A DNA stretch of 64,000 nt from Blasia pusilla (taxonomy: Eukaryota), in NCBI GenBank assembly GCA_050084515.1, contig CM114271.1, forward strand, positions 22,568,001 to 22,632,000, given 5' to 3'. Below the pieces are notes generated by a model. That model was not told the origin of the DNA. It worked only from the letters and a program-made list of their open reading frames with translations, and ran no database searches. Of this stretch, positions 3,711 through 64,000 are shown one piece after another. A program made the position numbers and the translations under genes. Numbering within the stretch: the first letter of the stretch is position 1; each line of letters starts with the position of its first letter.

Positions 3711-4610
3711 ATTCGGGTGTTGGATCTCTTTGGAGGGATCAACACTAGGTTAGCTGTTGTTTTGCAGGCAGGAGTTCGCGTACAGCAGTACCTCTATGTG
3801 GAGATTGATGATGTTGCAAGGTGCGCTTCACTTCACCATGAGGCACAGTTACGCCTTTATTTTCCCGACTTGTTGTTTGCATCCGCTGTCCAGGGATACC
3901 AGAGTTCCCTATCAAGAGATATTTCATTGCTGGGGGCGCAGGACTTAGAGCGGTTAGGGACCATAGACTTAGTCATTGCTGGTTGGCCGTGTCACGGCCA
4001 GTCGGGTGTTGGACGAGGTAGCGGATTAGCTGACTCGCAGTCCATGTTGTTTTGGGAGATCATGCGGATCTAGCGACATTTACAAGAGCATCAGTCTCAT
4101 CCTCCAGCATACATTCTGGAAAATGTGCCGATTTTTGGCGATTTGAGGTCCCGTGCGCGCATGGATCGGCCCGACAGTGTTGTTGGATGCGGTGAGTGTA
4201 GGTGGGCGAGCATATCGCCCGCGTCTTTGATGGACCAACTTGGTGCCACATGAGGTTTTGTAGAGAGTGTATACTAGAGTGGAGCACCCCTCCGATTTGT
4301 TGGTGGATTCTATTTTGGATCGAGGTCGTCGATCACATGCAGTGAGGCACAATGATCGACCGTTGTTCACTGTGGTCAACAAGATTGGTATGCCATGGGC
4401 AGCAGCCTTTCCCACATTTTTGAGTTTTCCCGCTTCCTACGCATTCATGGTTGAGATGACCAGGTACAGAGGTTGGTGGAGCCCAACGCCGATGAGCGAG
4501 AGAGAGCGATGGGATTCCCCACATAAGTGATCGTCACTATCAGAGGCATCACGACATCATATCTTGGGTCAGGCGACGGACCTAAATTGATTGACATGGA
4601 TTTTCAACTT
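3711..4610 (+). pseudogene. E1 DNMT3-like C5 cytosine DNA methyltransferase domain
   Basis: Motif I VLDLFGGI, II YVEID, IV DLVIAGWPCHG, V DSQSMLFWE, VI YILENV, VIII RPRL*WTNL, IX-X ERERAMGF...ILGQA, in linear order, with stops and frameshifts. Confidence 0.9.
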
Positions 4611-5029: not shown

Positions 5030-6385
5030 ATAGGAGTTGCTTTGCATTTAGTATACATGACTTGGGTACGATGAAGGGTCCAGGGATCCGCATTGAGTTG
5101 TCGAGCGACCACCAATCTTCGACGACCCTACACGTATAGTGACATGGAAAGGGCTCTGATTCACAGTAGGAGCCAAGACTTGGTTGGAGCAGGACTACTT
5201 GAGATGTCGCATGGAGAGTATGCATCTGCCATTGTCATGCCCGCCAAGAAGGATGTGCATGGCAACTGGATGGATGTGTGGAGATTATCGACCTATCAAT
5301 CGGAAGACTTAGTCCGATAGGTATGCCATGCCCACCCATGGGGAGATCTTTGATGCGATTGAGCATGCAAAGATCTTCAGTTCATTGGATTTGCGAGCCT
5401 GATACCATCAATTGCCTATCAAATTGGAGGACAGGCAAAGACAACATTTTGGGGCATCGATCCTCATGGGAAGGATTTTTTGTACCAGTGGCGGTTCTTA
5501 CCATTCGGTTTAGAGAACGCACCGGTTGAGTTTCAGAGGATCATGGATAGGATCTTGGCAGGTCTAGATTTTGCTAGTTGTTATATTGATGACATGGTAG
5601 ACTTTAGCGCCACGGTTGAGGAGCATGAGTGACATCTAGAGGAGGTATTTTGACGATTGTAGTTATATGGGCTAAAGCTACATCCAGGCAAGTGCAAGTT
5701 CTTCTACGACCAGATTGAATACTTGGATCATACGATATACGTAGGTGGCCTTGGTGTGCAGAAGAAGAAGATAGAGGCTATTTCACGTATCCTTGCAGAT
5801 GTGAGTCGAGTTTGTGCATTCATGGGATTGGCGAACTTCTATCAATACTACGTCAAGGGGTTCAGTTTGATTGCAAAACCGCTTATCTTGCTGACCAAGG
5901 TGGATCAAGAGTGACAATTGGGGGATGAGCAGGAGAGAGCATTTCATCTGCTCAAGGTCAGATTGACGTCCGCGCCCGTATTGAGGAGACCGATCAATGG
6001 GCGTCCTTTCCAATTGCACACCAATTAGAGCATGTTGGGGCTTGAAGCCGTGCTCACCCAACATGAGGATGATGCTAGAGAGTTCGTGGTGGCTTATGCT
6101 AGTCGCTCGAACAACGTTGCAGAGGTGAAGTATAGCTCGTATGAGGATGAGTGCTTGGCTGCAGTATGGGCTCTCGCCCATTTCAGGTGTTATCTATTCG
6201 GCAATCCCTTTACCATCATAATTGATCATCAACCACTTAAGTGGTTGATGGAGTCTGACAAGATTACATGGAAGCTTGCGAGGTGGGCTCTTTTGTTGCA
6301 GGAGTATGACTTCCACGTGGTGCATAGACCAAGGACGCTCAACCAGGATGCAGATGGTTTGAGCTGTAACCCATGCCCGAGTTAG
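5030..6385 (+). pseudogene. pol: E1 reverse transcriptase and RNase H remnant
   Basis: YASAIVMPAKK, LPFGL, YIDD, FMGLANFY, AYASRS, DHQPLKWL and LARWALLLQEYDF motifs. Confidence 0.92.
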
Positions 6386-6734: not shown

Positions 6735-7978
6735 TTGGTGCATCATGCCAAGAGGAGTTGGATCATTTTGGAGTCAAGCGGACGTACAGCTTGCTCTAGA
6801 TATAGTATTGGTGGCGAGGCATGCATACTGACGTTCAGCAATTTGTTGCCATGTGCCTGGTGTGTAGTCAAGTTTGAGCATCGTTCAATGCTCCGACTCC
6901 ACAGTTGCATCCAATTCCGATCATGGGTTTAGGTTATAGATGGAGATTAGATTTTGCAGGACCTTTGCCTTTGACGGAGCGCCATAGTCGTTATGTGTTG
7001 GTGATGGTCGAGCACTTCTCGAAGTGGATAGAGTTGGTTGTATTTCCTGACAAAGCGAGTGAGGGAGTAGCGTATGCCTTCCTAGATCGAGTGTTGAGTC
7101 ATTACGGTGCACCAGTTGAGGTGTTGACAGACTAGGGTACATAGTTTCGTGGGGAGTTTCAGGCCTTGTGTGATTAGGCGCTAATCGACCACCGCACCAC
7201 TTCGCGAGATCATCCTAAGGCAAATGGACTAGCGGAGAGGGTTGCGTAGACGGTGAAGAGAGGATTACACAAGTATGGCTTGCAGAGAGGTCACCTAGGA
7301 GATTGGGACCTCCATTTGCCATGGTTAGTGATGGGATACAGATTCAGCAGGCAAGCATCCTTAGTGTCTTTCTCAACGTACTTGTTGCTTTATGGCCGAG
7401 AACCAGATTTACCTACGGCCATTCGTCGAGATGTTGAACCTTGATGACCCTGATGTATGGATGCGAGCATGTTCTCAGAGGGCTGAGTTATTTCCGAGAG
7501 TAATGCCTCATCACTCTCCCATGGCGTTTGAGAACTTGGAAATTGCGTAGCATCGGGATATGTTGAGGTATGCAATGATTTGGGGAGGTGGTTATCGACC
7601 TACTATCCGGAGGTTTCATCAGGGAGACTATGTCTACTTGCAGCAAACGGCATCCACGACGTTGGATATGACTGCAGGGTGCACCATCTTGAGAGTGCAT
7701 GAGATTTTTCCATCCGGTGTTCTCTTATTGGAGGAACGTGATGGTATGGTTTGGAAGGACCATGTGCGTAACTGTGCGCCATGTCATCTTCTGAACATTT
7801 ACGATACATTTGATCCGAGCTTAGCAGTAGTTTTGTATGTATGTTGTGTGGTTCTGCCCGTGGTGCAGCCACTATGCTAGTCTGTGAGGGATGTTCGACA
7901 GGATAGCATATGGCATGTGTGATGCCACCTCTCACTAGGGTTCTTGAGGGAAAATGGATGTGTCCCAGATGAACATAG
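6735..7978 (+). pseudogene. E1 DDE integrase with C-terminal PHD remnant
   Basis: HHCC region, LDFAGPLP, EVLTD*G and GLAER motifs; degenerate PHD ending WMCPR. Confidence 0.88.
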
Positions 7979-8157
7979 AGTAGGTAGTTCTAGATTCCAA
8001 CTTGTGTCTGTGGCATGGATGACAAGAAGGCGACTAACGATGGGGCCACATGAGCACCCGGCCTTTTTGCTCTTAGCGTCCGAGAGATGTCTGTCATGGT
8101 AGATAGGGATAGATGGCTATCTGGAGTTAGAGGGACCTAACCACCAACTAGGGGGCG

Positions 8158-8920
8158 ATTGGAGATATTTTGGTATTTCTTGTCTCGTTGTTTGGATGCC
8201 ATGAGTAAGCATGGGATCGTGCGTGTTTGTGTGTATGTTTGTCGACATGGATGTATGTTGTGTAGCGATGTGAATGTGCACAATAACTGTCAAGTTTTTT
8301 AGGATAGATCGGAGAGATCTGGTAGAGCGACTTTGCGAGTAGAGGAGGACACGCTCAAGAGGTCGAGGATGACCTATTGAGGTCCTAGGAAACCTGAGAG
8401 AGCAGGTTTTCCCTTCGTTTCGGCTCATTTGGAGCCATATAGAGAAACTTACTATTTTGGGTAAATTTCCATATTTGGTAGAGTTGAATTTCCACTTTAG
8501 GAAGTGGCCCTTGACCCACTAGAGCAGGTCAAGAGCCAAGGAGGTGACCTGCGATCATAAGTTACCGAGGAGAGAGCTTGGGAGAGGGAAGGGAATATAC
8601 CTCAAGGAGAGAGAGTTTGAGAGCTCATTTTATCTTTGTTGAACCTCTTGGCATGAGGCGGCGGAGCTATGGTCCCTTGCCTTGTGAGTGTAACCCAAGC
8701 CTCTCATTAAGAGAGTGGGTTTGGTTTGACATTGAGAGAGAGTGCACACATTTGAGAGCTATGGTGTTGAGAGAGATTGGATCTACTTGATTTATTGGAG
8801 ATATTTTGGTACTTCTTGTCTCGTTGTTTAGATGCCATGAGTTAGCATGGGATCGTGCGTGTTGTGTGTATGTTTATCGACAGCGATGTATGTTGTATAG
8901 TGATGTGTATGCACACGACA
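8158..8920 (+). repeat. E1 3' split direct repeat block: B1 (8158-8285), ac, A2 (8288-8793), B2 (8794-8920)
   Basis: B1 and B2 are ~127-bp direct repeats starting attggagatattttgg. A2 starts TGTCA and matches 44141-44435 and 52915-53320. Purine tract tagggggcga precedes B1. Confidence 0.88.
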
Positions 8921-9099
8921 AGACATTACAAGATCCACCTCAAGATATGTCTTGATGTTGTGTATTCATGCTATGAGTGGGAGCAACAAACTTCACCAAA
9001 TTGTTGCTTGTTCCTCAACTTAGTACATTGGCATTGCTCATGTAGGAAAGGAATTACTTTCGCTTTGTTACTTTCTCAACAGTACCAAATCTCCATGTG

Positions 9100-9215
9100 A
9101 AGGAACTAGAGGTTTCTTAGATAACCAAGGAAATATTGCACTCGACAATAATCCTATTTATTATGCGAGAAGTGAGCCTATCAATGTTTGTCACCACTTC
9201 ATCAAAGATCTCATG
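9100..9215 (+). pseudogene. Ty1/Copia RNase H C-terminal remnant
   Basis: Translates to NPIYYARSEPINVCHHFIKDL, resembling the Copia NPVFHARTKHIDVRHHFIRD motif. Confidence 0.55.
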
Positions 9216-9438
9216 GGGATCGGCCTAAGGTTCATTGGGATTGAAATATGGCAAGCAATTTCCTTGCCAAATCATTGTTATCTATCAAGCATACAAAATG
9301 CTTGAGCATGAATTGTCATTAGTTGTGCACACTATGGTTGGAAATTTACCATGGTTACAAGTCTCTCATTGTAATTAGATTACTTGTTCTTTCTTAAATA
9401 TTCTTGCTAGTTGTGGTTATGTTAATTTTGCTCATAAT

Positions 9439-9645
9439 CAAGGTTGCACGGAAATTGACAGGCGTGGCCCGCATCCAAGCCCGTCCAAAGCCCACCGCGT
9501 AGACCCGGGCTGACATAACCCGGATCTACACGGTGGGCTCTAGGGCGAGATCGAGTGCGGGCCGTGGGTACCCAGGCCCGCACGGACATAAGTCCGCGAA
9601 CATGGACATATCCGCGGATACGGACTTTGTCCGTGTACAACCCTA
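9439..9645. mobile_element. hAT-type MITE
   Basis: TIR caaggttgca...tacaacccta; perfect 8-bp TSD ctcataat (9431-9438 and 9646-9653). Confidence 0.85.
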
Positions 9646-11712
9646 CTCATAATGTGTTGGCCTTTGCATGATGTGTTGGCTCAATGAGTTACTTTATTCA
9701 TGTTGTGATAGCTTATTTAGCTAGCATGCTTCTTTTGCATGCAAGCTAGGAAGCTTTTCCACCTTGCCTTACCATGTAGTGGTCCCTTTTGATGACTCTT
9801 TCTAGGAATCTCTCTCTATCTCTCTCTCATATGGCCCTGTGGGGTCCCCGTGGACAATAAATCTATTCATTCATTCATTCTCTCTGTGACAATGTGCCTT
9901 GAGATTAACTCTTTCTTACACACCTAAATCTTTGTTCGTGCCTTAATCAACTAAGAAGGAATGTGCATTGGTATGGAGGATGCTCCAAGAACCAATTTGA
10001 CACATTTTCCTGCATCTTGCTTTCAACTACGTTTATTCAAGTCTTGTGTATTCTAATAAGGTGGTGTTGTCCTAAGCATCCAATTCCCAATAGAAGTTGT
10101 TGGCTAGTTTTGCATGCAACCCATTTCATATTTGTTCTTTCAGGTTTGTAAGTGATTACCTTCATACATCATTTTGTGGAAGATCTAGTCCAGATCTATG
10201 CTTTTAAAATTTTAAAAGTGAGATCTGAAAGAAATAGAATTTTGATTTCATCAAATAGAACAACAACTATTATGAGCCAAGCTTACCCTATCACTACAAG
10301 GAGACAACTAAATACATATATTTAGAAGTGCAAAAGGAATCGGTTTTAGTACGGGTGACTACGAACATAGGAACTTTGGAGTATTATTGAATTGGCAAAT
10401 ATACTTGGAATTTTTATAAACCATGTTTTCATAAACTAGTTTATTTTATTAATTTTCCCCTTTCCTTCTCCGGCAAGAAACTTCTGAGCAAGCGTTTTCA
10501 ACGGTTGGGTTTTCGAATGTTTTCGCACCTCATATTCGCGGACCAACTTAAGGTCGTGCAAACCGTGTGATTCATCATCCAGATTCTAGCCGACAGAGAC
10601 TCACCGCACCCATTGCCCACTACGACGCATAGAAATGTCTGTAGACGGTTCCGGACGGTAGATAGAGAGAGCTACTGCGAATGTTACTTCCCTTAATACC
10701 TTCAATTTATTATCTCTCATGCTGAATTCAGACTGTGGCTGAGTGGAAAGTGGAGGATTATTCAATCAGAGAACGCTGTCGCCTTGGAAAGGAATGGAAT
10801 GGACAGTCAGTTTCCTTCCCCTGAATCCCCGACGTGTGCAACCGATTTTAGGGGTTGCGATCCTGCGATCAGTGCGATGGAGTGCGGCCACTGCGGCGAA
10901 TGCAGGAGTGGAGTTATGAGGCCGACAAAGCTGTTGACAAGCGGGGAAATCTCAACGGCAATTCGAAGCGCAGCGGCAGACAAGGGGGTACTACATTTTG
11001 TTTCTTTCTTTGATATAGATGGAGCCGTGGGCGAGCAAGCATGAAACGGAAGTGAGGACCCGCAGATATGAAGCACGGAACTGACATGATCGGCATGAAT
11101 GAAAACTTGACACGCAAGACTACGGAAAGGATGAAATGAAATGTGGAATTTACAGCCATTACGAAGCGTGAAAGAATCAAAATTTCGAATCTGGATGGCC
11201 GCAAACATCTGTCGAAGGTTCTCCTTCGCTACATATTGCTCTATATAGATTTCTACAGAGCCTGCACCATCGCTCACTTCAGTACCTCCATTACACTACA
11301 CTATGGACACCCTCAATGAAATGCCCGGGCCTCTTTCTACAGTGTCAAAATGTTAAATAGGCTCCTCATAGTTCCCTGTAAGCCCTTCAATCCGGAACGC
11401 TATGTCTGTAACACCACCACCACCACCTCCGTTACGTACGACTAATAAGTTAAGTCTTACACCCCAAGAAAAGCATCTTACGAATTCGGAGGCAGAGGGG
11501 ATGTTCACGCCGCCGCCCTGGCGGTTTCGATCTCTCGAGACACACCAGGGTTTCAAAATATGACCGTTCGGCCCCAGAATCGACTGTCCAGACGATACTC
11601 ATCACATTCTTTACTCGTTCACCAGCAACAAGTCCACGACTTGCTTTGCACGAGTTTGTCATAACTCACTCATCGGCTCTGTTAGTCACAGAATCAGCTC
11701 TCCTTTGCTACC

Positions 11713-14536
11713 TTACCCTAGAACATGTCTGAAGTTCACGAGGAACAGGGCTACTAGGCAGCCCATGGTCATCACGATCGATATTTCCGATCCTTGGCCG
11801 GCGCCGCTGCCTGGAACGTTTCCGCCGGTCGTGGTGGTAAGATTACTGCTCACCCACAACACGCCCGATTAGTGTGCGGAATGGGAGTGATACTTTAATT
11901 CGGCGCACATCTCCCAAGGCACGAAGACTGCATATGAAAAAGAAAACCACATGTCCACCAAGCATCTTCTAGCACCAGGACTAGCTTGCACACATCCCCA
12001 GAGCCCTAGGAAGCCAGCCCATGTCTGTAACTCCAAAGATGAGTGGACCGGCGTTGGACTGGCATCAAGAGCTGCACCTCCACTGCTGGGAATAGGGTCA
12101 TGGACAGAAATGCAAATGAAAAGAGCGAACGAGGAGGCAGAATCTGTACCTGGCCTGGTATACGCAACCTTGGTAACCTGCACAAAACAGACAGACGGAC
12201 ACACAAGGCTTAATGTCCGTCCACTGGAAGCTCCAATAAAAGTATGTCTAATCCCACATTCGAATTGCTCCAATGCGTTTTGATGGCGAGGAAACAAAGA
12301 GGCCACCCATTTACTCGAAACCATGATAGGCCATCAATTGGATAATTCTGAGGCACAGCCAGCATCCTCGATTCACTGACAATCAAGTGATCGAGCTAGA
12401 ATCCGAGCATAAACACGAGACGGTATTCAGAACGTGTTGAGCTTACTTGGATTGTAGCTGACAATTTGCCCAACACCTCTGAAGTCACATGTGTCGGGGG
12501 CGTTCCCGTTCTTTTGATAGTAGCTGTTGAAGGCCCACGAAGCGTGCGACTCAATCGTATCGGGGAGGAAGCAGGCGGCCCCTTTCTTGATAGTTGAGCA
12601 ATTCACGCCTCCTTGGCCGCAAGTCCAGTCCAGAGCTTGCTGCAATCCCTGTTGACTGACTTGCTTCTTCGCTACACACCAAGTCTGGTATGTGGTACTG
12701 TTGCCGGCCAGCACTCGACCCTGACCAGTAAGATCGACATTGTACAGTGGAGTCAGAGTGTTTGTGAAAAGGCCGTAGTTGCGCTCTGAAGTGGGTCCAG
12801 TTCTGAGGTCCTCGTCGAAGAGCTCGTAAATGTAGACAGAGAGAGGGGCGGTGGGCTTGTACGGAGTACCCATTACACTCCTGTTGTAAACGCGCTTCGC
12901 AAGGTTTCCATTGTACTGAGCAGCATTGACGGTCGTTGCACCGAACTCATTGGCGTCTCCTTGAGAAGGCCAGCCCGTTTCAGTCACCACGATGTCAATT
13001 TGGCTGAAATTTAGAGCTGCCATGGCGTAGTAGCCGGCATCAACCAAAGCGTCGAAGAGACTGCTGTACTCCAAGTTGGAGTATGTGTCCGGCACAGGGG
13101 TGACGGGCTGAAACAGGGCATACTGAAGGTCCACAGCCTGAAGATTGGACTGGTAGGTGTAGTATGGGTATACATTGAGCATCAGGCTTGATCCAGTGAG
13201 GGAGAGAAACTGCAACAGGGGTATGAGGACAGGGACCAGAGTCTTGTTGAATGTAGATTGAGAAGGAGGGAAAGAATTTTGGAAGATGTCAGTGCTGTGG
13301 GGCGTGGAGACACTAATTTGGGAGCTGAGGCCATTCGCGACTAGCGCGTCATTGACCCACAGCATGGTTCGGACGAGGGTAGTGGAGAAAGATGGGAAGC
13401 TAGTGAGCACTTCGCTGCCCACTGCAATCGCTGTTATGTTCACAGTGCCTGCGTAGGGCACCACATTGTCCATGACCCACGATGCTGCGGTAGCATTTGT
13501 TCTTCCGACATCGGCGAGCTGATCGTTGGGGATTCCGATGATCACCGTTATGCCAGAACCGGCGAATGCCTTCAACACATCCTGGTTGGTGTCGTAGATT
13601 CTTACGTGCTCGACGCCGTTGTCCTCCAGAAGCTTCACAGTGGAGGACGGAATGGGAACATTGCTCCCCTGTGTGCCATAAACCACCCCAAGGGTCGCTC
13701 CTGCAGCTCCTGCACCATCCACGAAAGAGATGTACGTACGATGTGAGGTACTCAGTCTATTATCTCTCATTCCAAAGACAGCTAGAAAATCTTTCCGCTA
13801 CTAGCACAGATGACGCAAACCGATGGCCTTCGCCACGTCTCGCGGTGATCCCGGATTATCAGGGTCCGAGCCACCGGGCGACACGGCCTTAGACTCCGAG
13901 CAGCAGGGGCTTCGCCGACAGATTCAACAGACTTCGCTCGAGCTGAAATTTATTTGTCGGACGAAAGTGGATAGAGCCATTCAATCTGAGACTATAAGGG
14001 GTGGCGATTTGCTACTTCGCTCAACTACCAGGCAAAACGTTGGACATGTCTTTGCGCGACTAGAGTTCAAGAAAAGTGCAGGATCACTCGCTCATAAATC
14101 TGAGGGTTTATCGGGGGAGGGAAGGGGGACAGTGACATAATTTCATTGACAAAACACCTTGACTGTAAAGCTTCGGCACACCCGCAGAGGAATTCGTAGC
14201 TTTCGTACAACAACGGCTATGGTGGCAAACCCATCTAAATCCCTTCCTTCAGACAGCTGTGGTGCAAAAAGTCCAATTGCGGGACTGGGCATCCACCAGC
14301 ACGAGCCCGTCCGTGAGATGGGTAAGAACATCGGATGTAAAGCAGGCCTGTGCTCGCACGATTACACGAAGAGTGGATACAATCAGTCCATGAAACACAT
14401 GAGCGATGGGGATTCGCGTGTCCGGGCACTAGCACCGACCACTCGACGGGAACTCACCGGCACACTGAATGAGAAGAGCGACGAGCAGAGTCTGCAGCGC
14501 GAAGAAGAGACTGATCCGTTGGGTAATCCTACCCAT
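11713..14536 (-). CDS. Glucan endo-1,3-beta-glucosidase (GH17 + X8/CBM43 + GPI-anchor signal), about 500 aa, 4 exons: 14536-14458, 13709-12447, 12177-12150, 11845-11713
   Basis: Exon 1 is a signal peptide (MGRITQRISLFFALQTLLVALLIQCA). GT-AG introns keep the frame. GH17 motifs GVVYG, AVGSEV, NVYPY, VTETGWPS, YELFDED, ERNYGLF; X8 WCVAK...ALDWTCG...CDFRG; hydrophobic C-terminus. The exon 2 acceptor could alternatively be 13700. Confidence 0.93.
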
Positions 14537-26029: not shown

Positions 26030-28200
26030 TAAGTTAGATTAATTTTTGGCTCCCATGCTCTTTCGCATAAATCATAACCTTCCCATTATACTAAGTATTC
26101 ATTTGCTAATCTCTTTCCTCTCTTTATTCTATGCTCATCCAATATAGTCTCGACTCCAAACTCTTATTGGTCTTCAACGATGATCAGGTCAGGTCGCAAA
26201 AGTCTTGTCTAAGAGGGGTCTTGATTATCCACAAACTCCTTAAGTTCACTAACATCAAACACATCATGAACTCGCCTGATCTCCAACAACAACCTCAATT
26301 GGTAGGACATCTCCTTAACCTTTTCGAGTATCTCGAAGGGTTCTTGGCGCCTTCAAGTATCTTCCAGAAGATACTTGAAGGCAATTAGTGGGACCTTAGT
26401 CTTAGCGAGACAACTCATAATAGATCCCTAACTTCAAAGCTCACATCTTAATTGTCTATGAACATCATCTTGCCACTTGGAGCGATGTCAGGAGCATTCT
26501 AACAACATGGATGCCTCTTTATACTCCTACAATCGCTTCGCCTGGAAGTCCTCCACTTTTGGCATGGAACTCCTCACTTTAGATGCCTTTGGTTCTTCAA
26601 ACCAAGTTGGGATTCTTGAATTGAACCCCACTACCAACATAAATGATGTGTATACTATCGTCAAATTCATGGAGTTCTTATACTCAACCTCCACCATAGG
26701 CAAATGCTTTACCCAATCTATTTGATCTATTGAAAAATAGTTTGGAAGATACTCCTTAAGCGCTAAAGTCACATGTTCTACTTGGGCCAGTGTGTTCAAG
26801 TGATAGCCCAAACTTAGAAGCACATCGGCTCCTACTATCTTAAATAGATACATCCAAAACTTAGAGAAAATTGCTATCTAATTGATTACTAACTCACTTG
26901 ATAAAGCCCAATGTTTGAAAAAATTGTCAAAGAAAAGAATCAAAAGATGAGCTACCTCCAATATCTTTCGAGTCAAAATGAAAACTCACATCTTTGAACA
27001 TCGACCTTCCACTACCATGATTGAATTAAAACCTTTTGACCAAGATAATCCCACGATGAAATAGCAGTAGCACTTTCCCATGGTCACTACAAAATTGGAA
27101 AAGGTTGAATAAGCCTTGGCGGCTTACCATAGTCCGTTCAATTCTTTTCACAAACCAAATACGATTGGATTCATTGGACACACTCTATGGTATTCTTGAG
27201 ATGGCCAATATGAATATTCGTTAAGAATCTCCAAGATTGTTATATGATCTAGATGTCCCACCCAAGATGCATCATGATGAACCTCAAAAGCCTTGGTCCT
27301 TAAACTCTTAATTAAGAACATACATCCTTTACTACTTCTATTTCAAAACACTATTCACAAGAATAATTAATATGCCTCACACTCGTCCCCTTCTCATGGT
27401 TGCACCAAAATGGACAAGTCCTTTCTTAGGACGGACATGGGTTCCAAGAGGTGGGACCCACACTTTTAGTCCATGATGGAAGGCAAGGCAAGGACGAGAG
27501 GAGAAATGAGGGAGGAGGGAGTGGAGGTGGAGGGAAGAAGAAATGGGGGAGTATGGAACACGAAGGCAAGTAAGGGGAATGAAAAAGAAGGAAAAAGTGG
27601 GGCCCATACGGACAAGTCCTTCCATTGGACGGACATAAGTCCACGGACACAGGATTTGTCCACATGCAACCTTGCCCCTTCTTGAGAGTCTCTAACCATC
27701 CTTGGGAAATTCTTTTCGTGCAAGTAATCCGCCTTGATCAAGTTTCTCCTATTAGTTTCCAACATCCAAGTTCTTTTCAAGTATTGCTCGTACGTACTCA
27801 AGGCGTCGACAACCACATTCTCCTCGTCTAGCTTATAGAATATTTCCATATTGAATCTCACTAAGTATTATTGCCAATGGAGTTGTTTTAGTGATAGCCA
27901 CTCCTACCTTGCAAAATACTTGCAAGTGATGTTGTGGATATAAACCTTGAAGTCCGGAATATGTAACGAATTCGAATCGAGATTCAAATATACTTCCCAC
28001 TTCTTGAGGTAATGAATAACCACATAAATCTCCCTCTCATGAGTGGGCCAATTATTCTCTAACTTGAACAATTCATAAGAAACTAGTCAAATTGCTTGGT
28101 TTAACACTCCCCCAATGGCAAAGTTCGACGTATCAATCCAAACTTTGAATGGGAACTTGATTTTGGGCAACTTGAGTACAAGATGGTTGCTTACTAGAAA
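26030..28200 (-). mobile_element. Highly decayed chromovirus-type Gypsy remnant (RNase H, integrase, chromodomain)
   Basis: Minus strand FKVWIDTSNFAIGGVL and WPTHERE (RH), DWVKHLPMVE (IN), EYLV*WEGYDLCERAWEP (chromodomain, about 26045-26100). Confidence 0.7.
27395..27674. mobile_element. hAT-type MITE
   Basis: TIR catggttgca...tgcaaccttg; perfect 8-bp TSD ccccttct (27387-27394 and 27675-27682). Confidence 0.9.
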
Positions 28201-34530: not shown

Positions 34531-34879
34531 ACGGATGTGAGAGTCATCCATGATGTCACGTCGACGAGTTGGACCATTGCCTACAGGGTCTGTACAGGCA
34601 TTGGCTGGGGGCGAGACGAGGAGAGATAGGCATCCATGGACTTCCTAGAATGTCATTCGAGCAGAGAGTGCGAAGGCGTCCAGAGTAGCACATGTTCCAT
34701 TTTTTGATGTAGAGCATGGTGTAGGAGGTCAGAGTGGAGTGGTTGTTGCGGAGGTGGCTAGGGTTGCTACATAGCAACCAAAGCCGGAGGTTGCGTCCTC
34801 TCTAAGTGAGGTCACGATGGAGACTTGGGAGCCTGTGATAGGTCTCAAGTTGATAGGTGGAGAGCGACGGCGAGCTCAT

Positions 34880-37837
34880 AGGTTTTTGAGAGGGCATGTC
34901 AGTTGTTTTGCCTTCAGTATGAGAGACTTGGGTACGCTGAAGGGTCCCGGGATACCGATTGAGTTGGCTAGTGATACGCCGATCTTTCGTCGACCCTACA
35001 GGTATTGTGATATGGAGCGAGCCTTGATTTAGAGCAAGAGGCAAGACTTGTTGGAGGTAGGACTTGTGGAGTTATCAAATGGGGAATATGCATCTGCCAG
35101 AGTCATGTCGGCAAAGAAGGATATGTATGGCAATTGGACGGATAGGCGGATGTGTGGAGATTACCGTCTTATCAACCGACAGACGAGGTCAGATCGGTAC
35201 GCCATGCCTACTCCTGAGGAGATCTTTGATGCGGTAGGGCATGCAAAGATCTTCAGTACTTTAGATCTCCGTGCTTGCTATCATCGGCTTCCTATCAGGT
35301 TGGAGGACAGGGAGAAGACAGCATTCTAGGGGATAGATCGGTTCGGGAGAGATTGCTTGTATCAGTGGCGGTTCTTACCATTTGGGTTGAAGAACGTGCC
35401 TGCACAATTTTGGAGAGGGATGGATAGGATTCTGGATGGCTTGGATTGTGTACGATGTTACATAGATGATATTCTTATCTTGAGTTCCACGGTTGAGGAG
35501 CATGAGCGACACTTGGAGGAGGTGTTTTGGCGATTGCAGTTACATGGACTGAAGTTACATCCAAGCAAGTGCAGATTCTTTCAGGAGCAGATTGAGTACT
35601 TGGGACACACCATATATCCGAGTGGGTTAGGCGTTCAGCAGAAGAAGGAAGAGGCGATTGCGCAGATTCCACGCCCTACAGATGTAAGTCGAGTCCGAGC
35701 ATTTCTTGGACTGGCGAACTTCTATCGACGGTATGTCAAGGGTTTTAGTGCGATCGCAAAGTCTTTGACCTTGTTGACGAGACTTGATCAGGTTTGGTTA
35801 TCGGGAGATGATTAGTAGCAAGCATTTCAGGAGCTCAAGGATAGGTTGACGTCCTCACCAATTTTACAGAGACCGGTTAGGGGTCGCCCATTCTAGTTAC
35901 ATACGGATTGGAGCATGTTGGGTGTAGGAGCAGTGCTTACTCGGAGGGATGACGAGGAGAGGGAGTTCGTTGTGGCTTACGCGAGCCGATCGAAGAATAT
36001 TGCAGAGGTGAAGTACATCTCCTACGAGGGAGAGTGCTTGGCTGCAGTGTGGGCCGTGGCACATTTCAGGTGCTATTTATTCGGCAACCCTTTCACACTT
36101 ATCACTGATCATCAACCGTTGAGGTGGTTGATGGAGTCCGACAAGCTTGCAGGAAAGCTTGCCTGGTGGGCTCTATTACTACAGGAGTATGAGTTTGAGG
36201 TGGTTCATAGGCCAGGTCATCTGAACCAGGATGCGGATGGATTGAGTCGTAACCCATATTCAAGTCAGAGAGACAACACAGGAGCTCGATGGCACGGAGA
36301 GAGTGATGAGGAGATGGTGTCCGGTTGGCATGCATCTGCCTATCTTTTTGGTTGACTATGGCAGGTCAGCCACAGGTGATGACTCCAGTGGTGGGGTTGG
36401 ATGATGAGTCTTTGGATTCAGAGGTTAGTGGGGAGGCGACAGGTGGTCGTGATATCCATAACGACGTGGAGGTTGTGGAGTTCTTGTGCACTGGCGTCAT
36501 TGCGAGTACAGTGAGTGCTAGGGAGCGGGATCGCATCCTACAGAGAGCCAAGAGGTTCAGGTGGGAGGGGACTCACATTTTGCAGGTATGGGGAGATGGT
36601 AGGATACGAGTGGTACCTCATCCTTCCCAACGAGCACGTGTAGTGCGACATGCCCATGAGGAGTTGGGACATTTCAGAGTAAAGCGTACTTACAGCTTAC
36701 TCCAAGTTTAGTATTGGTGGCGCGGCATGCATACTGGGATACAACAATTTGTGGCCAGATGTATGGTATGTGACAGAGTGCGAGCATCCTTCAATGCTCC
36801 CACTCCGCAGTTACATCCTTTGTCGATTATGGGTTTAGGTTATCGGTGGAGTTTAGACTTTGCGGGATCTTTGCCATTGACGGGGCGTCATCATAGGTAC
36901 ATGTTGGTCATGCTGGAGCATTTCTTCAAGTGGATAGATTTGGTGGCCCTTCCAGACAAGGCGATCGAGGGAACAGCTTATGCGTTTCTAGATCGTGTGC
37001 TTAGTCACTTTGGTGCACCGGCGGAGGTGTTGACTGACCACGGTACCGAGTTCAGGGGAGAGTTTCAGGCCTTGTGTGATCAGACGCTGATAGATCACCG
37101 CACCACGTCAAGAGATCATCCTGAGGCGGATGGGTTGGCGGAGAGAGTGGTACAGACGGTGAAGAGAGAATTGCGCAAGTATGGCTTGCAGTGGGTACAG
37201 TTTAGGGAGTGGGACCTATAGTTGCCATGGTTGGCTATGGGTTATCGCTTTAGTCGGCAGACATCCTTGGCGTCATTTTCACCGTACTTTTTGCTCTTTG
37301 GGAGAGAGCCAGATTTACCTGCAACGATTCGAGGTGACATAGCGGAGGTGTTAGATCTTGATGATCCAGATGTGTGGGTACAAGCATGTTCTCAGAGGGT
37401 GGAGGTTTTTCATAGAGTTATGCCTATGGCCTTTGAGAACTTTGCTATTGCTCAGCATAGAGATACATTGAGGTACGCGACCATTCGTGGAGGAGTTTAT
37501 TGTCTAGGGATTAGGAGGTTTCATCCTCGAGATTACCTGTATTTACAGCAGGCGGCACCCACGACGCTAGATGTCACTGCAGGGCGCACGATCCTACGTG
37601 TGCACGAGGTATTACCGACCGGAGTCCTCATGTTGGAGGGACGGGATGGTATGGTTTGGAAGGATCATGTGCGCAATTGTGCGCCATGTCATCTTCCGAA
37701 CGTAGATGGGACGGTGGATCCGAGCTTGGCAGCGGTACCTGCAGGCTTGAGGTGTATGTTGTGCGGATCTGCGAGGGATGCAGCCACCATGTTGGTATGT
37801 GATGGTTCTTCTAAAGGGTGGCATATGTCATGTGTGA
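34880..37837 (+). pseudogene. pol: E3 RT, RNase H, integrase and first part of PHD
   Basis: MCGDYR, LPFGLKN, YIDDIL, FLGLANFYRR, AYASRS, TDHQPL, LDFAGS, TDHGTEF, DGLAER, CMLCGS...VCD...GWHMSC. Confidence 0.93.
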
Positions 37838-40561: not shown

Positions 40562-41598
40562 TCCTACGGTGTGTTGACACAGTTCCTACGTGCTCATAGA
40601 AGTTGTTTTGCCTTTAGCATGAAGGAGTTGGATTCTCTGGTTGGACCCGGTATACGGATTGATTTGGCTAGTGATACGCCAATCTTCCGTCGTCCCTACC
40701 GATATAGTGATATGGAGAGGACTTGATTGAGTAGGACGTTGGACCTTTTGGAGGCTGGATTAGTGGAGTTGTCGCATGGAGAGTATGCATCGCCCATTGT
40801 CATGCTCGCTAAAAAGGATATGCATGGCAACTACACGGATATGCGGATGTGTGGAGATTACCGTCCTATCAATCGGAAAACCAAGGCCGATAGGTATGCC
40901 ATGCCTACACGAGGAGATCTTTGATGTGGTGGGGACAGAAAAGATTTTCAGTACTTTGGATCTTGAGGCGAGATACCATCAATTGCCGATTCGGAGAGTG
41001 ACAAGGCCAAGAAAAGACATTTTGGGGTGTCAACTCTCATGGCAAGGATTGTTTGTACGGTGGAAATTCTTACCCTTTGGGTTGAAGAATGCACTGCCGA
41101 GTTTCAAAGAGTGATGGACAGGATCCTAGCAGGGGTTGGATTTTGTTGGTGTTACATTGATGATATCTTGGTGTTGATAACACGGTGGAGGAGCATCAGA
41201 TACATTTGCAGATGGTGTTTGAGCGGTTGAAAGCTCATGGTCTACGTTTGCATCCAGGAAAGTGTAAGTTCTTCCATGAGGATGTTGAGTACTTGGGTCA
41301 TGTGATCTATCCAGGTGGTTTGGGAGTTCAGCAAGCAAAGGTGGAGGCTATTGCACTTATTCCGCGTCCGGTAGATGTGAGTAGAGTTCGAGCATTCATG
41401 GGATTGGCGAACTACTATCGGAGGTATGTGAAGGGATTTAGTGCTATGGCAAAGCCTTTGAACCAATTGCTGAAATCAGATCAAGAGTGGCACTGGGGAG
41501 ATGATCAGGAGAGAGCTTTTGTGGAGCTTAAGGCCCAGTTGGTGGCGGCGCCTATCTTGAGGAGACCTATCAGAGGGCGCCCATTTCAGTTACACACC
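40562..41598 (+). pseudogene. E4 reverse transcriptase, inverted relative to the rest of E4
   Basis: MCGDYRPIN, LPFGLKNA, YIDDIL and FMGLANYYRR on the plus strand, between minus-strand RH and MTase. Confidence 0.85.
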
Positions 41599-41949: not shown

Positions 41950-42850
41950 ACTCAAAATCCAAGTCAAACAATTCAGGTCCATGGCTGACCCAACACATGA
42001 CGCCGTGAAGCCTCATAAATAGAAGCAACCGATGTCACACCAAAGAGTTAAATCCCATCGCACGCTCTCTCATCGCGTTAGGCTCCACCAAGCGCCGCAC
42101 ATGAGAATCCCATACAAGTACCCGGGACCACCTTCCCCGAGGCATGTGACGCGGAAAACTCACAAATGTGGGTAGTGCCATCCTAGGTGGCCCACACGGT
42201 TCACTTGCCATGCTTGGGTGACCGATCAATAACCCTCACCACTTGAGAAAGTTCGCCAAAGATTCAAGATACTATCCACTGTAAGGCGAGGATCCATCAA
42301 CGCATCATATGCTCCGAGAACCTCCCTAGGCAACAAGTTTGTCCACCACAAGCGTGGGCGATGTGCATTGAGCGTTATTTAGGAACGCATCAACAACCGC
42401 TGGTCCAATCAAGACCGCACCTCAAAAACACCGCCATCATCCGGTCCAGTGTCACCCAACAATGGAACATTCTCGAATGTAAGCTAGAGCACGTGCTCGA
42501 TGAACCGCGGAAGATGTCGTAACACCCGTGAACATCTCCCAAAACAATCGAGACCTAGGGTCATGTAATCCCTCACCACGACCAAATCAGACGTGATGAC
42601 TGGACATGGCCATCCCATCAATCACCAAATGCAGGAAACCCTCTCAAGGTCCTGCGCCCCCAACAATGCAATGTGTGATGGTAAAGCACGCTGGTACCCA
42701 CGAATAGCTGATGGCGGCAACAACTCAGGATATCTCCGCATCAACTGACCAATATGTCGGGATGAGACTCTATGGGCCGTCTCATCTCGCTCCACATACA
42801 CGTATCTCCGCACAGGAATACCGGCCTGCAACACTGCCGCCAAACCAGTG
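41950..42850 (-). pseudogene. E4 DNMT3-like methyltransferase remnant (indel-rich)
   Basis: LAAVLQAGIPVRRYVYVE, GWPCP-like motif IV, DPRSRLFWE, ENV, HRPRLWWTNL, ERAMGF; truncated before motif I. Confidence 0.8.
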
Positions 42851-48529: not shown

Positions 48530-49490
48530 GTATTAGGGTGTTGGATCTCTTTGGAGGGATTAATATTGGGTTAGCTGTTGTTTTGCAGCCAGGAGTACGC
48601 ATACAACAATACCTGTATGTGGAGATTGATGATGTTGTAAGACGCGCTTCACTTTACCATGTGGCGTAGTTACACCTCTGTTTTCCCGACTTTTTGTTTG
48701 CGTCCACTATCCAAGGATACGAAAGTTTCCCATCGGAGATATTTCATTGTAGGGGGCGCATGACTTGGAGTGGGTAGGGACCATAGACTTGGTCAGTGCT
48801 GGTTGGCCGTGTCAGGGCTAGTTGATTGCTGGACGGGGTAGCGGATTAGGTCACTCGCGATCTAAGTTGGTTTGGGAGATGATGCCAATCTTGCGATATT
48901 TACAGGAGAATCAGTCCCATTCTCCAGCATATATTTTGGAGAATGTGCCAATTTTGGGCGATTTGAGATCCTACGTGGTGACGAGTGCACATCAAGTGCG
49001 CGCATAGATTGGTGCGGTAGTGTTGTTGGATATAGTGAGTGTAGGTTCACGAGCACATTTCCCGCGTCTTTGATGGACCAACTTGGTGCCACATGAGGTT
49101 TTGTGGAGGGCGATGCAGAGTGGGCGCCCCTCGATTTTTTTGCTGGATTCTATTCTGGATCCAGGTCGTCAATCAAAGGCAGTGAGGCACGATGATGGAC
49201 CGCCGTTGACTGTGGTCAATAGTATTGGCATGCCACGCGTAGTCTTTCCCACATTTGTGAGTTTTCCTGCTTCCTATTCATTCAAGGAGGCCAGACCTAG
49301 CTTGGTTTGGGATGACCAAGTACAGAGGTTAGTGCAGCCCAACGTTGATGAGCGAGAGTGAGCGATAGGATTCCCCACAAGAGTGACGTCAGTACCTTCA
49401 CTATCAAAGGCATCACGACATCATGTCTTGGGTCAGGCAATGGACCTCAACTGCTTGACATGGATTTTCAGCTTAGGAATAGCTGAGCAG
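48530..49490 (+). pseudogene. E5 DNMT3-like methyltransferase
   Basis: IRVLDLFGGINIGLAVVLQ, YVEID, AGWPCQG, RSKLVWE, YILENVP, PRL*WTNL, VLGQAMDLNCL. Confidence 0.9.
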
Positions 49491-50463
49491 AGTCATTTTA
49501 GGATGCGACGGATCACAGCTATTGCGTTGGTGAGCCCCATGCCTACCGAGACGGTTGAGGCAATGGCTTGGGGCAAGACCTGAGGAGATTAACATACCAG
49601 GGATGATTGGGAGAGACACCCTTGGACTTCTTGGGATGTTATGCAGGTACGCCAAGAGATGGTAGCCACAACATCGAGCGTGGTTCCGGGTACTGCACAT
49701 GGAGATCATATTTTGTCAGCTGGTTGTAGGAGAGCAATCAAAATTTGGTGTTCGAGACAGGTTTGCACTATAGCAACCACCTACAGCCACTCCAGAGAGT
49801 CCTACCCTAGTCACGATGGAGACTTGGGAGCCAGACATGGGCCCTAAGATGACAAGAGGAGAGCAGCGCCTGATACATCAATTCCTGAGGAGTTATAAGA
49901 GTTGTTTTGCATTAAGCATGCAGGATTTGCGTACGTTGAAGGGTCCACGGATCCGCATTGACTTGTCGAGTGACACGCAGATCCTCCAATGACCCTACAG
50001 ATACAGTAACATGGAGAGGGCTCTGATTCAAAGTAGGAGCCAGGACTTGGTTGGAGCGGGACTAGTGGAGATGTGGCATGGAGAGTATGCATATGCCACT
50101 ATCATGCCCACCAAGAAGGATGTGCATGGCAATTGGATGGATAGGCAGATGTGTGGAGATTACCGACCTATCGATCGGCGGATGAAGTATGATAGGTATG
50201 CCATGCCCACCCGTGAGGAGATCTTTGATACGATTGGGCATGCACAGGTCTTTAATTCATTCAATTTGTGAGCCAGATACCATCAACTGCCTATGAGATT
50301 GGAGGACATGCAGAATACTTCATTTTGGAGCATCAATCCTCATGGGAAGGATTGTTTGTATAAGTGGCGGTTCTTACCATTCGGGTTAAAGAATACCCCG
50401 GATGAGTTTCAGAGGGTCATGGATAGGATCTTGGCAGGTCTTGATTTTTCTAGGTGTTATATT

Positions 50464-61250: not shown

Positions 61251-64000
61251 AACGCCGATGCCGCACCACCACCAAATTACCCAAGTGACGTCGATGTCGC
61301 TCTACTATTGTAGCTCTACTAGCTATGGGTGTAGGCAATCTAACCTCTCATCACCACAAGAAGTCTCCCCACGTCTCCATCTGGTCATCACTCCACCTCA
61401 CTATCGTGAGCACACAGGAGTAACACTACTCGAAATCAGCGTCAACCCTAACAATGGGCGCAGAAGCAAGAAGCACGATGGAGGGGATCGGCATACGTGA
61501 AGTCCAACGACAACCCTCCAACCGCAAATGGAAATCAAGGTAACACAATCCACCAAACGTGGTGCCCCCGAATCCACAAAACCCACCACACAATTCTAAC
61601 GCAATAGCTACTCCGCGGGTCGATGACGTACTAGTCGAACTCGCAAAGACTGAAAATATCACCTACATGGAGAGGCTACACCGCACTATGCGCTAGAGGT
61701 ACATCAACCAAAAACCTGAGATGCATAAAGCGCCTAACACATCTCCGAACAAAGACCAAATGAGCTACAACAACAGACACTTGGCATAGTTAAGAACTCA
61801 ACAGATTAAGCGCCCTCCGCGAGAATAGCCCAAAGATGGGTGACCAGTTATGCAAAACTCAAATCCCAAATCCTGAAAAAATTGCCTCACGCCCAAGCAA
61901 GCAAGCTTGCTTGCTTGCTCCTTGCTCCTTACTCCGCATCTCACGCCCACTCGCCCCGAGCTACCACGAGTTGCCTCGAAGCCTCGAAATGCTCGAGACA
62001 TGCCCCTATCGCCCCGTTCGCCACGCTTCGCCATGCTTCGCTATGGAGAGAGGTCCAACCAGGGCGCCCCCAACGGGATAGGCATCTCCAACAATGAACA
62101 AGTCACCAACCAACCAGCCCCTCTGATCCGTTGTCCACCATAGCCAGACCTTGAGCTAGTCCGCAAAATTTCGATCAGAAATTACTTCACAAATACGTGA
62201 CCGAAATCAAATCTGTTTCGATCAAAATTCAATTGACCACCATTGCTATCTCCCCACAAAAACTCAGCTACAACCGAGCTCCGTACTCCGAGCTAAAAAT
62301 CAGACAAACTTGCTGTCCATACACCTCTAGAACCGCAAATCCGACAGCGCTTCCGCCAAGTTTCATGCACGCAGAAATCCGCAACGCTCCACACACTCGA
62401 GCACATAGCTTCACATGAGATCACAATACAAGTATCAATAGGAACCTCTCACCCGATCTGGATGAACTTCAACAGAGCTTCCGCAATCCAAGCTCTCCAC
62501 ATCAGAAAACTATCGAACACGAACCAGAATCTTCAATGCTTGATAACTTCCAACTCCCTTGACGAAATCCGCGATCTACAACAGCGTTGAAAGCTCTCAG
62601 CAAGGCGCTTCTTTCCCAACCAACAACGCACCTGATTCACACCTCCAACATAGGCAACAAGCCCCGAACATCCACGGCTGAGTACACAATCAGCCCTAAC
62701 CAGATCCTACTGATCTACAATCGAAGCTACCATCGATCTACTCCTGTTCTTTGAGTGAAATCCGTGAAAGACCTACTATCATAAAACACGTTTACAATCA
62801 CATACAATCGAGCCAAACCCACTCCACGATGGGAGAATCTAGGTAGAAGCTTGCGGGAAACACCATAGCCAAGAGCTCTACTCACTACCAAGGCTAACTC
62901 CCAACGCGAAGGCTCAACTCAAAGAATGATTGTTCTTTGAGTGCACTCCACCTTATATCCTCCAACCTAAGAGTGGGCCCCTATCGGGAAACTCACCCCA
63001 ACCGAGTAAGCCCCCAACCTGTATGGAACCGCATCTCTACCAAGCCACTACGGTCCTACATAAGGAATGTCCTCTACTAGCACACTATACTCTATGACAT
63101 AATCCGTATGGTCATGACAGTGATCCCCCCTCTTGATGTGGTTCCCACGGGACGATGGATGTGTCCGAGATGTGTATAGGGTAGTAGGTCATGTCAGAGA
63201 GATGTGATATTTTCTATCTGGAGTTGGGGGGGATCCAACTGCCAACTAGGGGGGCGGTTGTGTGATCTCCATGTATATGTATGAGTTGATTTTTGTACAT
63301 GTGTGGATCGACCCGTGTGAGGGAAGATCGGTGTTGTGTGGTGTAGATGTGATCAGCGATGTATATTATGTAGCGATAGGTATGCGCACGACACCTATGA
63401 CATATCCACGGAGATAGATAAAAAAAATGTGGGATCCACACTTATTGTTCATGATGGTAGGCACGACAAGGGTAAATGGGGTAATAAGGAGGGAGGGAGT
63501 GGAGGTGAAGGAAGGAAGAAACATTGGGTATGGAACACAAAGGCAAGTGGGAGGAATGAGAAAGAAGGGGAAGGTGAAACTCACATGGACAAGTCTTTCC
63601 ATAGGACGGACGTAAGTCCATGGACATTAATATGTCCGTAGACACGGACTTTGTCTGCATGCAATCTTGGAGATTAGCCATGGTTTGGATCAACCAACCA
63701 TGCATCTCCCGAGTCTTCTTGATAACTTAATCGATTTAGTTGGATCATATCACTTCAAAATATGAGCATATAGTAAAACCTTCTTCAATGCTTGAAATAT
63801 AGAGTTGTTGTGTAGTGAAATGATCCACTATGTATATTCCACTCTTATTAGTGTTAGAGAGAGTTTTATGAATATTAAGTAAATTAGTTTAAAAAAATAA
63901 TTTTTCATGTTCAAACCTCTTTATGATGCCTCATTTATGCAAGCCTAACTTTAGGAAAAGAGGTAATAAATGAGACATGGAAAAAAAAAGTGAAATAGTG

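Follow-up and report, generated by a model that had tools for sequence, protein, structure and literature searches.

Gypsy-DNMT3 retrotransposons of Blasia pusilla carry split direct repeats and use different ends for reverse transcription and for integration

A 64,000-nucleotide stretch of the Blasia pusilla genome assembly GCA_050084515.1 (contig CM114271.1, positions 22,568,001 to 22,632,000 of the forward strand; the whole 64-kb stretch is called the window here, and positions are numbered from its first nucleotide) contains several copies of a retrotransposon family whose termini are built from split direct repeats, in which two segments, A and B, are arranged as A1...B1-A2-B2. A preliminary description, made from the sequence alone, had drawn attention to this layout on an element with a DDE integrase, and had suggested that it might represent an undescribed structural class of long terminal repeat (LTR) retrotransposon. 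Self-comparison of the window was used to delimit four copies, and pol identity among the three lineages present amounts to 72-75%.

Positions before the window start to 8920, plus strand: element E1, with its 5' end outside the window
34811-37837 and from 63120 onward, plus strand: element E3
63119 to 37838, minus strand: element E4
44141-53450, plus strand: element E5

The coding content of E1 was established by a Pfam search of its plus-strand frames, read through with X at stop codons.

3915..4133, plus strand: degenerate C-5 cytosine DNA methyltransferase (DNMT) domain (Pfam DNA_methylase, E 2.9e-8, frame 3, amino acids 1305-1377)
5462..6307, plus strand: reverse transcriptase (RT), C-terminal part, and RNase H (RH) (RVT_1, 1.4e-18; RT_RNaseH, 8.9e-32)
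6761..7216, plus strand: integrase (IN) zinc-binding domain and DDE core (Integrase_H2C2, 6.6e-10; rve, 1.9e-9)
7838..7969, plus strand: PHD finger at the integrase C-terminus (PHD, 2.9e-8)

The domain order in E1 is therefore DNA_methylase, RVT_1, RT_RNaseH, Integrase_H2C2, rve and PHD, and motifs I, IV and VI of the methyltransferase are legible by eye. This DNMT-RT-RH-IN-PHD order is kept in relatives, in which the PHD finger occupies the same position: by Pfam, RVT_1, RT_RNaseH, Integrase_H2C2 and rve follow one another in seven database relatives, DNA_methylase lies upstream of RT in E1, L020, P0032, P0041 and P0051, and the integrase zinc and core domains are present in most relatives. 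L020 is one of 80 loci (L numbers below) that were fetched from metagenome contigs using an alignment of 16 relatives. It is nearly intact, with a gag carrying a CCHC knuckle and a single frame, interrupted by four stops, that encodes a DTG protease, DNMT, RT, RH, IN and PHD finger (the DTG motif and the CCHC knuckle were read by eye in the translation). The best solved-structure matches of its DNMT domain (L020 8816-9868) are DNMT3A/3B/3C (E 2e-6). The window copies are Ty3/gypsy-order LTR retrotransposons of the Gypsy-DNMT3 type, with gag, protease, a Dnmt3-like C5-methylase, RT, RNase H, a DDE integrase and a PHD finger; the preliminary description had named only the integrase and had missed the Dnmt3-like domain and the PHD finger. 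The protease-RT-RNase H-integrase order with a DDE integrase is that of Ty3/gypsy elements, as are a short target-site duplication (TSD) of 4-6 bp, a polypurine tract (PPT) before the 3' repeat and a primer-binding site (PBS) after the 5' repeat. What these copies lack is the pair of identical TG...CA LTRs that bounds such elements.

Of 8,000 candidate database proteins scored against E1 pol, 407 matched at E<=1e-10, and the best named matches came from Marchantia polymorpha (67%), Riccia sorocarpa (66%) and Calypogeia fissa (63%). Proteins of Klebsormidium nitens match at 39-46%, one of them with a C-terminal PHD finger, and this species was not among the matches to the L020 DNMT region within the length range searched. 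That region has relatives in Sphagnum (93%), Calypogeia, Closterium and two chlorophytes, implying that the type is widespread in green plants and algae. In a metagenome scan 384 of 488 pattern matches encoded a relative, so that the family seems to be common in bryophyte-like DNA.

Elements of this kind have been reported before. De Mendoza et al. (2018, Nat Commun 9:1341, PMC5890265) described KnitGypsy-Dnmt3 of K. nitens, an LTR Gypsy element with a Dnmt3-type methylase in Pol, and the legend to their Fig. 4c gives it Gypsy domains but a DIRS-type repeat structure, A-coding-B-A-B. A 2026 preprint (10.64898/2026.05.21.726589) names the type 'Gypsy-DNMT3' of streptophytes. The class is thus already in print, albeit briefly, and the proposal that it was undescribed has to be given up: the window copies, which have both the Dnmt3-type methylase in Pol and the A-coding-B-A-B repeats, join the Gypsy-DNMT3 kind. 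They share with KnitGypsy-Dnmt3 its Gypsy domains, methylase and repeat layout (as described in PMC5890265) and differ from it in host, the best named matches of E1 being from liverworts and those of the L020 group from Sphagnum. We found no open-access paper using the names KnitGypsy or Gypsy-DNMT3 beyond PMC5890265 and the preprint, and no DDE element, judged by title and start of abstract, among the matches listed in the open-access literature on split direct repeats in retrotransposons. In section 9 and the Fig. 4c legend of PMC5890265, KnitGypsy-Dnmt3 is presented without TSDs, PBS or PPT positions, junction analysis or mechanism, some of which the figures or supplements may hold. New here are the position of the PPT beside B and of a self-priming-type PBS beside A, giving an RT-made LTR of the form B-NN-A (NN being two nucleotides); the location of the integrase ends (TGTCA...CGACA) inside this B-NN-A LTR, at a CA-NN-TG with an invariant 2-nt spacer; a heterogeneous, head-to-tail-like joint between A2 and B2 (A2|B2); and an abundant shorter A...B form.

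The split repeats are most simply seen at the 3' end of E1.

8150-8158, plus strand: PPT agggggcga, read from the sequence, directly upstream of B1
8159-8285, plus strand: B1 (blastn against B2)
8286-8287, plus strand: 2-nt spacer 'ac' between CA (end of B) and TG (start of A), from the sequence
8288-8794, plus strand: A2, starting TGTCAAG, with a TATA-like box and a site complementary to the family PBS inside
8795-8920, plus strand: B2 (blastn against B1), its terminal CGACA being the end of the element

These coordinates (8150-8920), together with 91.6% identity between B1 and B2 (119 nt, E 3e-42, blastn), bear out the order PPT-B1-ac-A2-B2 that had been proposed for this end. A2 is homologous to the A segment of E5 (86.9% over 558 nt, B2 included), and A1 and the TSD of E1 lie beyond the window. 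Both ends can be followed in E4.

62757..63119 (63119->62757), minus strand: A1, starting TGTCATG, followed by a PBS-like sequence and an unrelated leader, with no B
62756-62747, minus strand: PBS-like ACTCAAAGAA, adjoining A1
38429-38421, minus strand: 3' PPT, directly before B1
38420->38314, minus strand: B1
38313-38312, minus strand: spacer AC between B1 and A2
38311->37945, minus strand: A2
37944->37838, minus strand: B2
37834-37837 and 63120-63123, on both flanks: TSD GTGA (as read on the plus strand)

As had been claimed, A1 of E4 runs into leader and not into B, and B1-A2-B2 stands at the 3' end; identity is 99% between the two B segments (105 nt) and 95.2% between the two A segments (372 nt). 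E4 is inserted within the PHD-finger region of E3, with GTGA on either side, and the parts of E3 to its left and right align to E1 7880-7923 and 7910-7990, one uninterrupted stretch of E1. This alignment is a paralogous empty site for E4, and it places the 4-bp duplication exactly at the start of A1 and the end of B2.

44137-44140 and 53451-53454, plus strand: TSD GGTT on both flanks of E5
44141-44433, plus strand: A1 of E5, with an internal deletion relative to A2, followed by leader and no B
44434-44446, plus strand: PBS-like CAAAGAGAGAATG, adjoining A1
50465-52901, minus strand: 2.4-kb block inverted relative to E1, containing RH-IN-PHD, PPT, B1, AG and the start of A2
50696-50688, minus strand: PPT, inside the inverted block
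50687->50561, minus strand: B1, inside the inverted block, with the AG spacer next
50558-50465, minus strand: first ~94 nt of A2, inside the inverted block
52893 to 53319, plus strand: remainder of A2
53320-53323, plus strand: CAAA, the same four bases with which the PBS begins
53324-53450, plus strand: B2, with GGTT directly after it
63248-63257, plus strand: PPT of E3, which resumes after E4
63258-63393, plus strand: B1 of E3, followed by a CC spacer
63396 (to 63423), plus strand: start of A2 of E3, then broken by a ~245-bp dispersed repeat

The assertion that E5 has the same layout thus holds for its A1 without B, its terminal B2 and its TSD, but not for the segment between, since inversion of the 2.4-kb block has carried PPT, B1, AG and the start of A2 to the minus strand. 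Likewise, of the three 4-bp TSDs put forward, GTGA (E4) and GGTT (E5) were recovered, and 'ccta' could not be assigned. The combination of a DDE integrase (rve and Integrase_H2C2) with TG...CA ends and 4-bp TSDs flanking the start of A1 and the end of B2 was as described.

We then determined how general this layout is across the 80 metagenome loci, each of which was classified by self-comparison and by BLAST with the A and B segments of two lineages. A PPT-B-NN-A-B 3' side was found in 28/80 loci, representing 20 distinct places and two lineages. In another 20/80 (17 distinct places) unrelated DNA takes over after PPT-B and extends for 700 nt or more, an arrangement we call A...B when the 5' end is present; its frequency is similar to that of the full form (17 versus 20 distinct places). 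Of the remaining loci, counted before removal of duplicates, 5/80 (L057 and L076 among them) have B-A in which A2 or B2 is incomplete or absent, 3/80 stop inside B at a contig end, and 24/80 could not be judged because they belong to other lineages or lack flank. The last group includes L001-L004, L008, L043, L058 and L062, which have no interpretable repeats and mostly less than 1.5 kb of downstream flank, and which do not count as exceptions. At the 5' side, B was found beside A1 in 0/23 loci with a visible 5' end, all 23 having A alone, and in neither E4 nor E5. The A...B-A-B layout is typical of the family and not a product of chance, and the circumstance that would have spoken for chance rearrangement, namely a majority of copies with ordinary A+B LTRs at both ends, did not occur among the 80 loci.

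Perfect 4-bp TSDs at the start of A1 and the end of the last B were seen in 8/12 distinct full copies (L007, L020, L027, L036, L056, L057, L066 and L078, of which L057 keeps only the last 29 nt of B2); three of four bases agree in L024 and L070, and no match was seen in L060 and L079. Among A...B copies the TSD is perfect in 2/3 (L016 and L021), so that overall E4, E5 and 10/15 metagenome copies with both ends have perfect TSDs. In L021, L036, L066 and L079 the TSDs were read by eye, as a short internal repeat at the end of B misleads automatic calling. On a pol tree, A...B and A...B-A-B copies are interspersed (15 changes against a shuffled mean of 12.7) and have similar terminal branch lengths; A...B copies therefore form no separate heritable lineage, and their scatter fits both direct integration and later deletion between B1 and B2.

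Two minor observations concern these repeats. One copy, L076 (13221-13511), has PPT-B-NN-A followed by unrelated DNA, with no B2 and with no A1 in the 10 kb upstream; it is the only copy of its sort, and could have arisen by rearrangement or by end-joining that captured linear complementary DNA (cDNA). Across 11 distinct full copies, A pairs are more diverged than B pairs (361 mismatches in 3,187 positions between A1 and A2 versus 153 in 1,764 between B1 and B2), a trend also seen in E4 (4.8% versus 1%), for which gene conversion between close B copies or different mutability is a possible cause.

The anatomy of the ends was worked out from an alignment of 18 metagenome 3' ends. In all 18, and also in L007, L033, E1, E3, E4 and E5, a G-run PPT lies directly before B, which reads ATACATGAG...GTCACGACA. 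B is separated from A by exactly 2 nt in 24/24 junctions (the 18 aligned and the same six others); the spacer may be AC, GC, GT, AT, AG or CC and is alike in close relatives, which indicates that it is inherited and constrained only in length. A opens with TGTCATGCC and includes TATAAAAGG; some 30 nt 3' of a TATA box in A comes AGTTTTTCTAGAATT, then an AATAA-like signal, and A ends in ...TTCAAT. A second B follows A, and similarity ceases right past ...GACA. The left end of A resembles the reverse complement of the right end of B (TGTCATGCC versus TGTCGTGAC), so that TGTCA at the start of A and CGACA at the end of B constitute an imperfect terminal inverted repeat with the 4-bp TSD outside it. 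An integrated copy is laid out as A1-PBS...PPT-B1-NN-A2-B2. Since the PPT abuts B on its left and the PBS abuts A on its right, the LTR produced by standard reverse transcription would be B-NN-A, and within this RT-defined LTR the TGTCA and CGACA ends meet as CA-NN-TG with the constant 2-nt spacer. The ends used for integration (A-left and B-right) therefore differ from those made by reverse transcription. Exact matches to CGACANNTGTCA occur only twice in the window, at the E4 and E5 junctions, while a scan allowing up to 2 mismatches was uninformative (58 matches versus 57.8 expected).

At the PBS, the border between A1 and the leader is complementary to a site downstream of the TATA box in A. 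The complement extends over 15 nt in L020, L060 and L070, 14 in E5, 13 in L027 and L029, 11 in L024 and L056, and 10 in E4, and in 9/14 copies tested such 10-15-nt complements were reached by no more than 2 of 300 shuffles. The paired sequences are lineage-specific (ACTCAAAGAA in E4, CAAAGAGAGAATG in E5 and AATTCTAGAAAAACT in the L020 group), which amounts to covariation. In minimum-energy folds, the predicted 5' end of the RNA pairs with the PBS in 7/8 copies. With the transcription start placed from TATA spacing, this arrangement appears to be that of Tf1-type self-priming, which Neumann et al. (2019, PMC6317226) have predicted for plant elements of the Tcn1 clade. The family would resemble Tf1/sushi and the plant Tcn1 clade in having a PBS complementary to the predicted 5' end of its own transcript and not to a tRNA, but differs in its DNMT domain, its permuted termini and, by Pfam, in having a PHD finger in place of the chromodomain.

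In each copy, the joint between A2 and B2 should consist of the right end of A, as seen at A1|PBS, and the left end of B, as seen at PPT|B1. This is exactly what is found in E1, E4, L020, L024, L027, L066 and L078. Other copies deviate by -2 nt (L036), +1 nt (L056), -1 nt plus a PPT-derived G (L060), -8/+1 nt (L070), +17 nt (L007), addition of CAAA, the first 4 PBS bases (E5), or addition of the PBS and ~35 nt of leader (L079). In the last of these (L079 13211-13580), where A2 runs on through PBS and leader before B2 begins, the joined cDNA end seems to have been extended past U5. In all, the joint is imperfect in 6/11 distinct metagenome copies that can be compared with an A1 and B1 of their own, against a background of 22 indel events in 4,951 aligned nt of repeat interior, and its variants are not common to sister copies. 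Being copy-specific and imprecise, A2|B2 behaves like a junction formed anew in each cycle, and from its sequence it looks like a head-to-tail joint of the U5-side and U3-side cDNA ends. B1-NN-A2, by contrast, is probably copied through RNA.

We lean towards an overall explanation in which a Gypsy-DNMT3 family has permuted RT and integrase ends, and its integrase opens head-to-tail joined cDNA at an internal site. The transcript would start in A1 and be polyadenylated in A2, and self-primed reverse transcription would convert it to [B-NN-A]...[B-NN-A], the ends of which would be joined head to tail, either by circularisation of the kind that yields 2-LTR circles or by end-to-end template switching of RT. 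Integrase would then nick 3' of both CA in one CA-NN-TG with a 2-nt stagger, leaving 3'-recessed CA ends with 2-nt 5' overhangs, and the linearised molecule would be inserted as A...B-NN-A|B with a 4-bp duplication. A one-LTR circle, or cutting at both sites, would yield the A...B form; this should be inactive from the outset, since termination and strand transfer need an A further downstream, which it lacks. We would advance only tentatively, as a claim we cannot yet call probable, the stronger form of this proposal: that RT ends and DDE-integrase ends are circularly permuted; that each productive insertion passes through head-to-tail joined cDNA, be it a circle or a run-on concatemer, opened at the built-in CA-NN-TG, so that a substrate of the circle-junction type is obligatory; and that tyrosine-recombinase and DDE elements acquired split direct repeats convergently, these being the trace left when joined ends are integrated.

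Retroviral integration from a joined-end junction, a matter of debate from the 1980s on, is seen as a side pathway. In human immunodeficiency virus 1, integrase reportedly cleaves at the 2-LTR circle junction. For the prototype foamy virus, 2-LTR circles have been described as being cut by integrase at their palindromic LTR-LTR junction, which leaves linear DNA with 3'-processed ends (Delelis et al. 2005, PMC1180852). The likeness lies in a CA..TG palindromic junction serving as an internal integrase substrate. In retroviruses, however, this junction exists only in the circle, whereas in the window family CA-NN-TG is permanently present in every LTR copy and in the integrated element.

Several observations weigh against this explanation. 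Transcription start, poly(A) site and circular forms, if any, are all predicted; PBS complementarity is weak or absent in 5/14 copies (L007, L036, L066, L078 and L079); and in the minimum-energy fold of E4 the predicted 5' end does not pair with the PBS. The indels at A2|B2 could reflect an ordinary mutational hot spot beside T-rich sequence, and the A...B copies could equally be post-insertion recombinants between B1 and B2. Moreover, the two sites of a 2-LTR circle are equivalent, and random opening should give A-B-A...B as often as A...B-A-B, yet A-B-A...B was seen at 0/23 visible 5' ends. A simple circle thus does not suffice as a model, which has to include some asymmetric step: a directed choice of site, or addition of the extra B at just one side, as end-to-end template switching of the plus strand would bring about.

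The last of these possibilities leads to a different account of the extra B, in which RT itself makes it: having reached the end of U5, the plus strand would jump end to end to the minus-strand 3' terminus, where B, possibly with more, would be copied a second time, producing a linear [B-NN-A]...[B-NN-A]|[B-NN..] from which use of sites 1 and 3 would give A...B-A-B and use of sites 1 and 2 A...B, with no ligated circle. Such a jump would account for both observed forms, for the strict asymmetry (A-B-A at 0/23 visible 5' ends) and for the variation at A2|B2, which is of untemplated or microhomology type. We nevertheless judge it unlikely; a reciprocal jump of the minus strand is not obviously excluded, and the L079 joint, with its PBS and leader, requires an additional aberrant event. 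A tyrosine recombinase, undetected or supplied in trans, might instead insert a circle as in PAT/Ngaro/TOC-type elements of the DIRS order, the DDE integrase being vestigial. To our knowledge, elements of that order make no target-site duplication, whereas E4, E5 and two thirds of the metagenome copies with both ends have perfect 4-bp TSDs; these, and the inverted TGTCA/CGACA ends as well, are characteristic of DDE integration. What recommends the idea is the layout, since A1...B1-A2-B2 split direct repeats define PAT, Ngaro and VIPER, in which the internal B1|A2 junction equals the junction of the joined termini (as described in PMC4157794), and the window family shares them. It differs, however, in having a protease, a DDE integrase with zinc and core domains in most relatives, and a PPT and PBS at the canonical positions of LTR elements. 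In agreement with the preliminary description, Pfam identified no tyrosine recombinase on either strand of L020 (E<=0.01 plus, E<=0.1 minus) or in the plus frames of E1, although divergent recombinases can escape Pfam; only gypsy-set families matched, with no family at all on the L020 minus strand and neither Phage_integrase nor any other non-gypsy family in the six frames. A DIRS-like mechanism is thus in our view very improbable. We find it scarcely credible that these are ordinary LTR elements (A+B or B+A) whose ends were altered by chance deletion, nesting, unequal recombination or assembly errors. The window copies are admittedly old and rearranged, with inversions in E5 and E4 and ~20 kb nested in E4, but the same layout recurs in three window lineages and in the 20 distinct metagenome places of two lineages, its TSDs lie exactly at A-left and B-right, and a canonical B-A or A-B 5' LTR was found at none of the 23 visible 5' ends.

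If integration does proceed from joined ends opened at CA-NN-TG, the family would be a natural case of a retroviral-type integrase acting on an internal junction of joined ends, and split direct repeats would have arisen convergently in tyrosine-recombinase and DDE elements. The anatomy, comprising permuted ends, a 2-nt spacer, predicted self-priming, a heterogeneous joint and A...B forms, points to a mechanism that can be tested. Because terminal layout is used as a diagnostic in the classification of transposable elements, the boundary between the LTR and DIRS orders is blurred. The expectation that standard LTR finders would mis-delimit such elements appears right: a program that pairs A1 with A2 would place the PPT 107-180 nt from the '3' LTR' and miss B2 and the true TSD, and copies would be mis-dated or discarded. 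The Dnmt3 and PHD modules, in turn, make the family relevant to the interaction between transposons and host chromatin.

The window holds several further features of the same elements and their surroundings. A Ty1/copia tail considered to the right of E1 (8921 onward) had no Pfam support in the six frames of 8921-11922. A further copy of the E1/E5 family is represented by its 5' end (A1 and leader, ~42842-44095, minus strand), head-to-head with E5, so that its A1 and that of E5 form a palindrome (43777-44428); this A1, too, enters leader and not B. Two independent copies contain inversions, at 50465-52901 in E5 and 40577-41598 in E4, with one nearly common breakpoint in RT/RNase H (E1-equivalent coordinates 5588-5951 in E5 and 6022-6080 in E4), which could be a recombination hot spot, a family feature or an assembly artefact; the other breakpoint in E5 falls ~94 nt after the start of A2, and this copy lacks 362 nt of RT. 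A dispersed repeat of ~230-250 bp, with GGACGGACA/GTCC-type internal repeats, occurs at 27437-27663, 55805-56059 and 63424-63668 (76-89% identical); one of its copies is that which interrupts A2 of E3, and the repeat may be an element like the miniature inverted-repeat transposable elements. Finally, the ~20 kb of nested material in the interior of E4 include a tandem array (57629-59238) of at least 9 copies of a ~180-bp unit, which are 61-92% identical to the reference unit.

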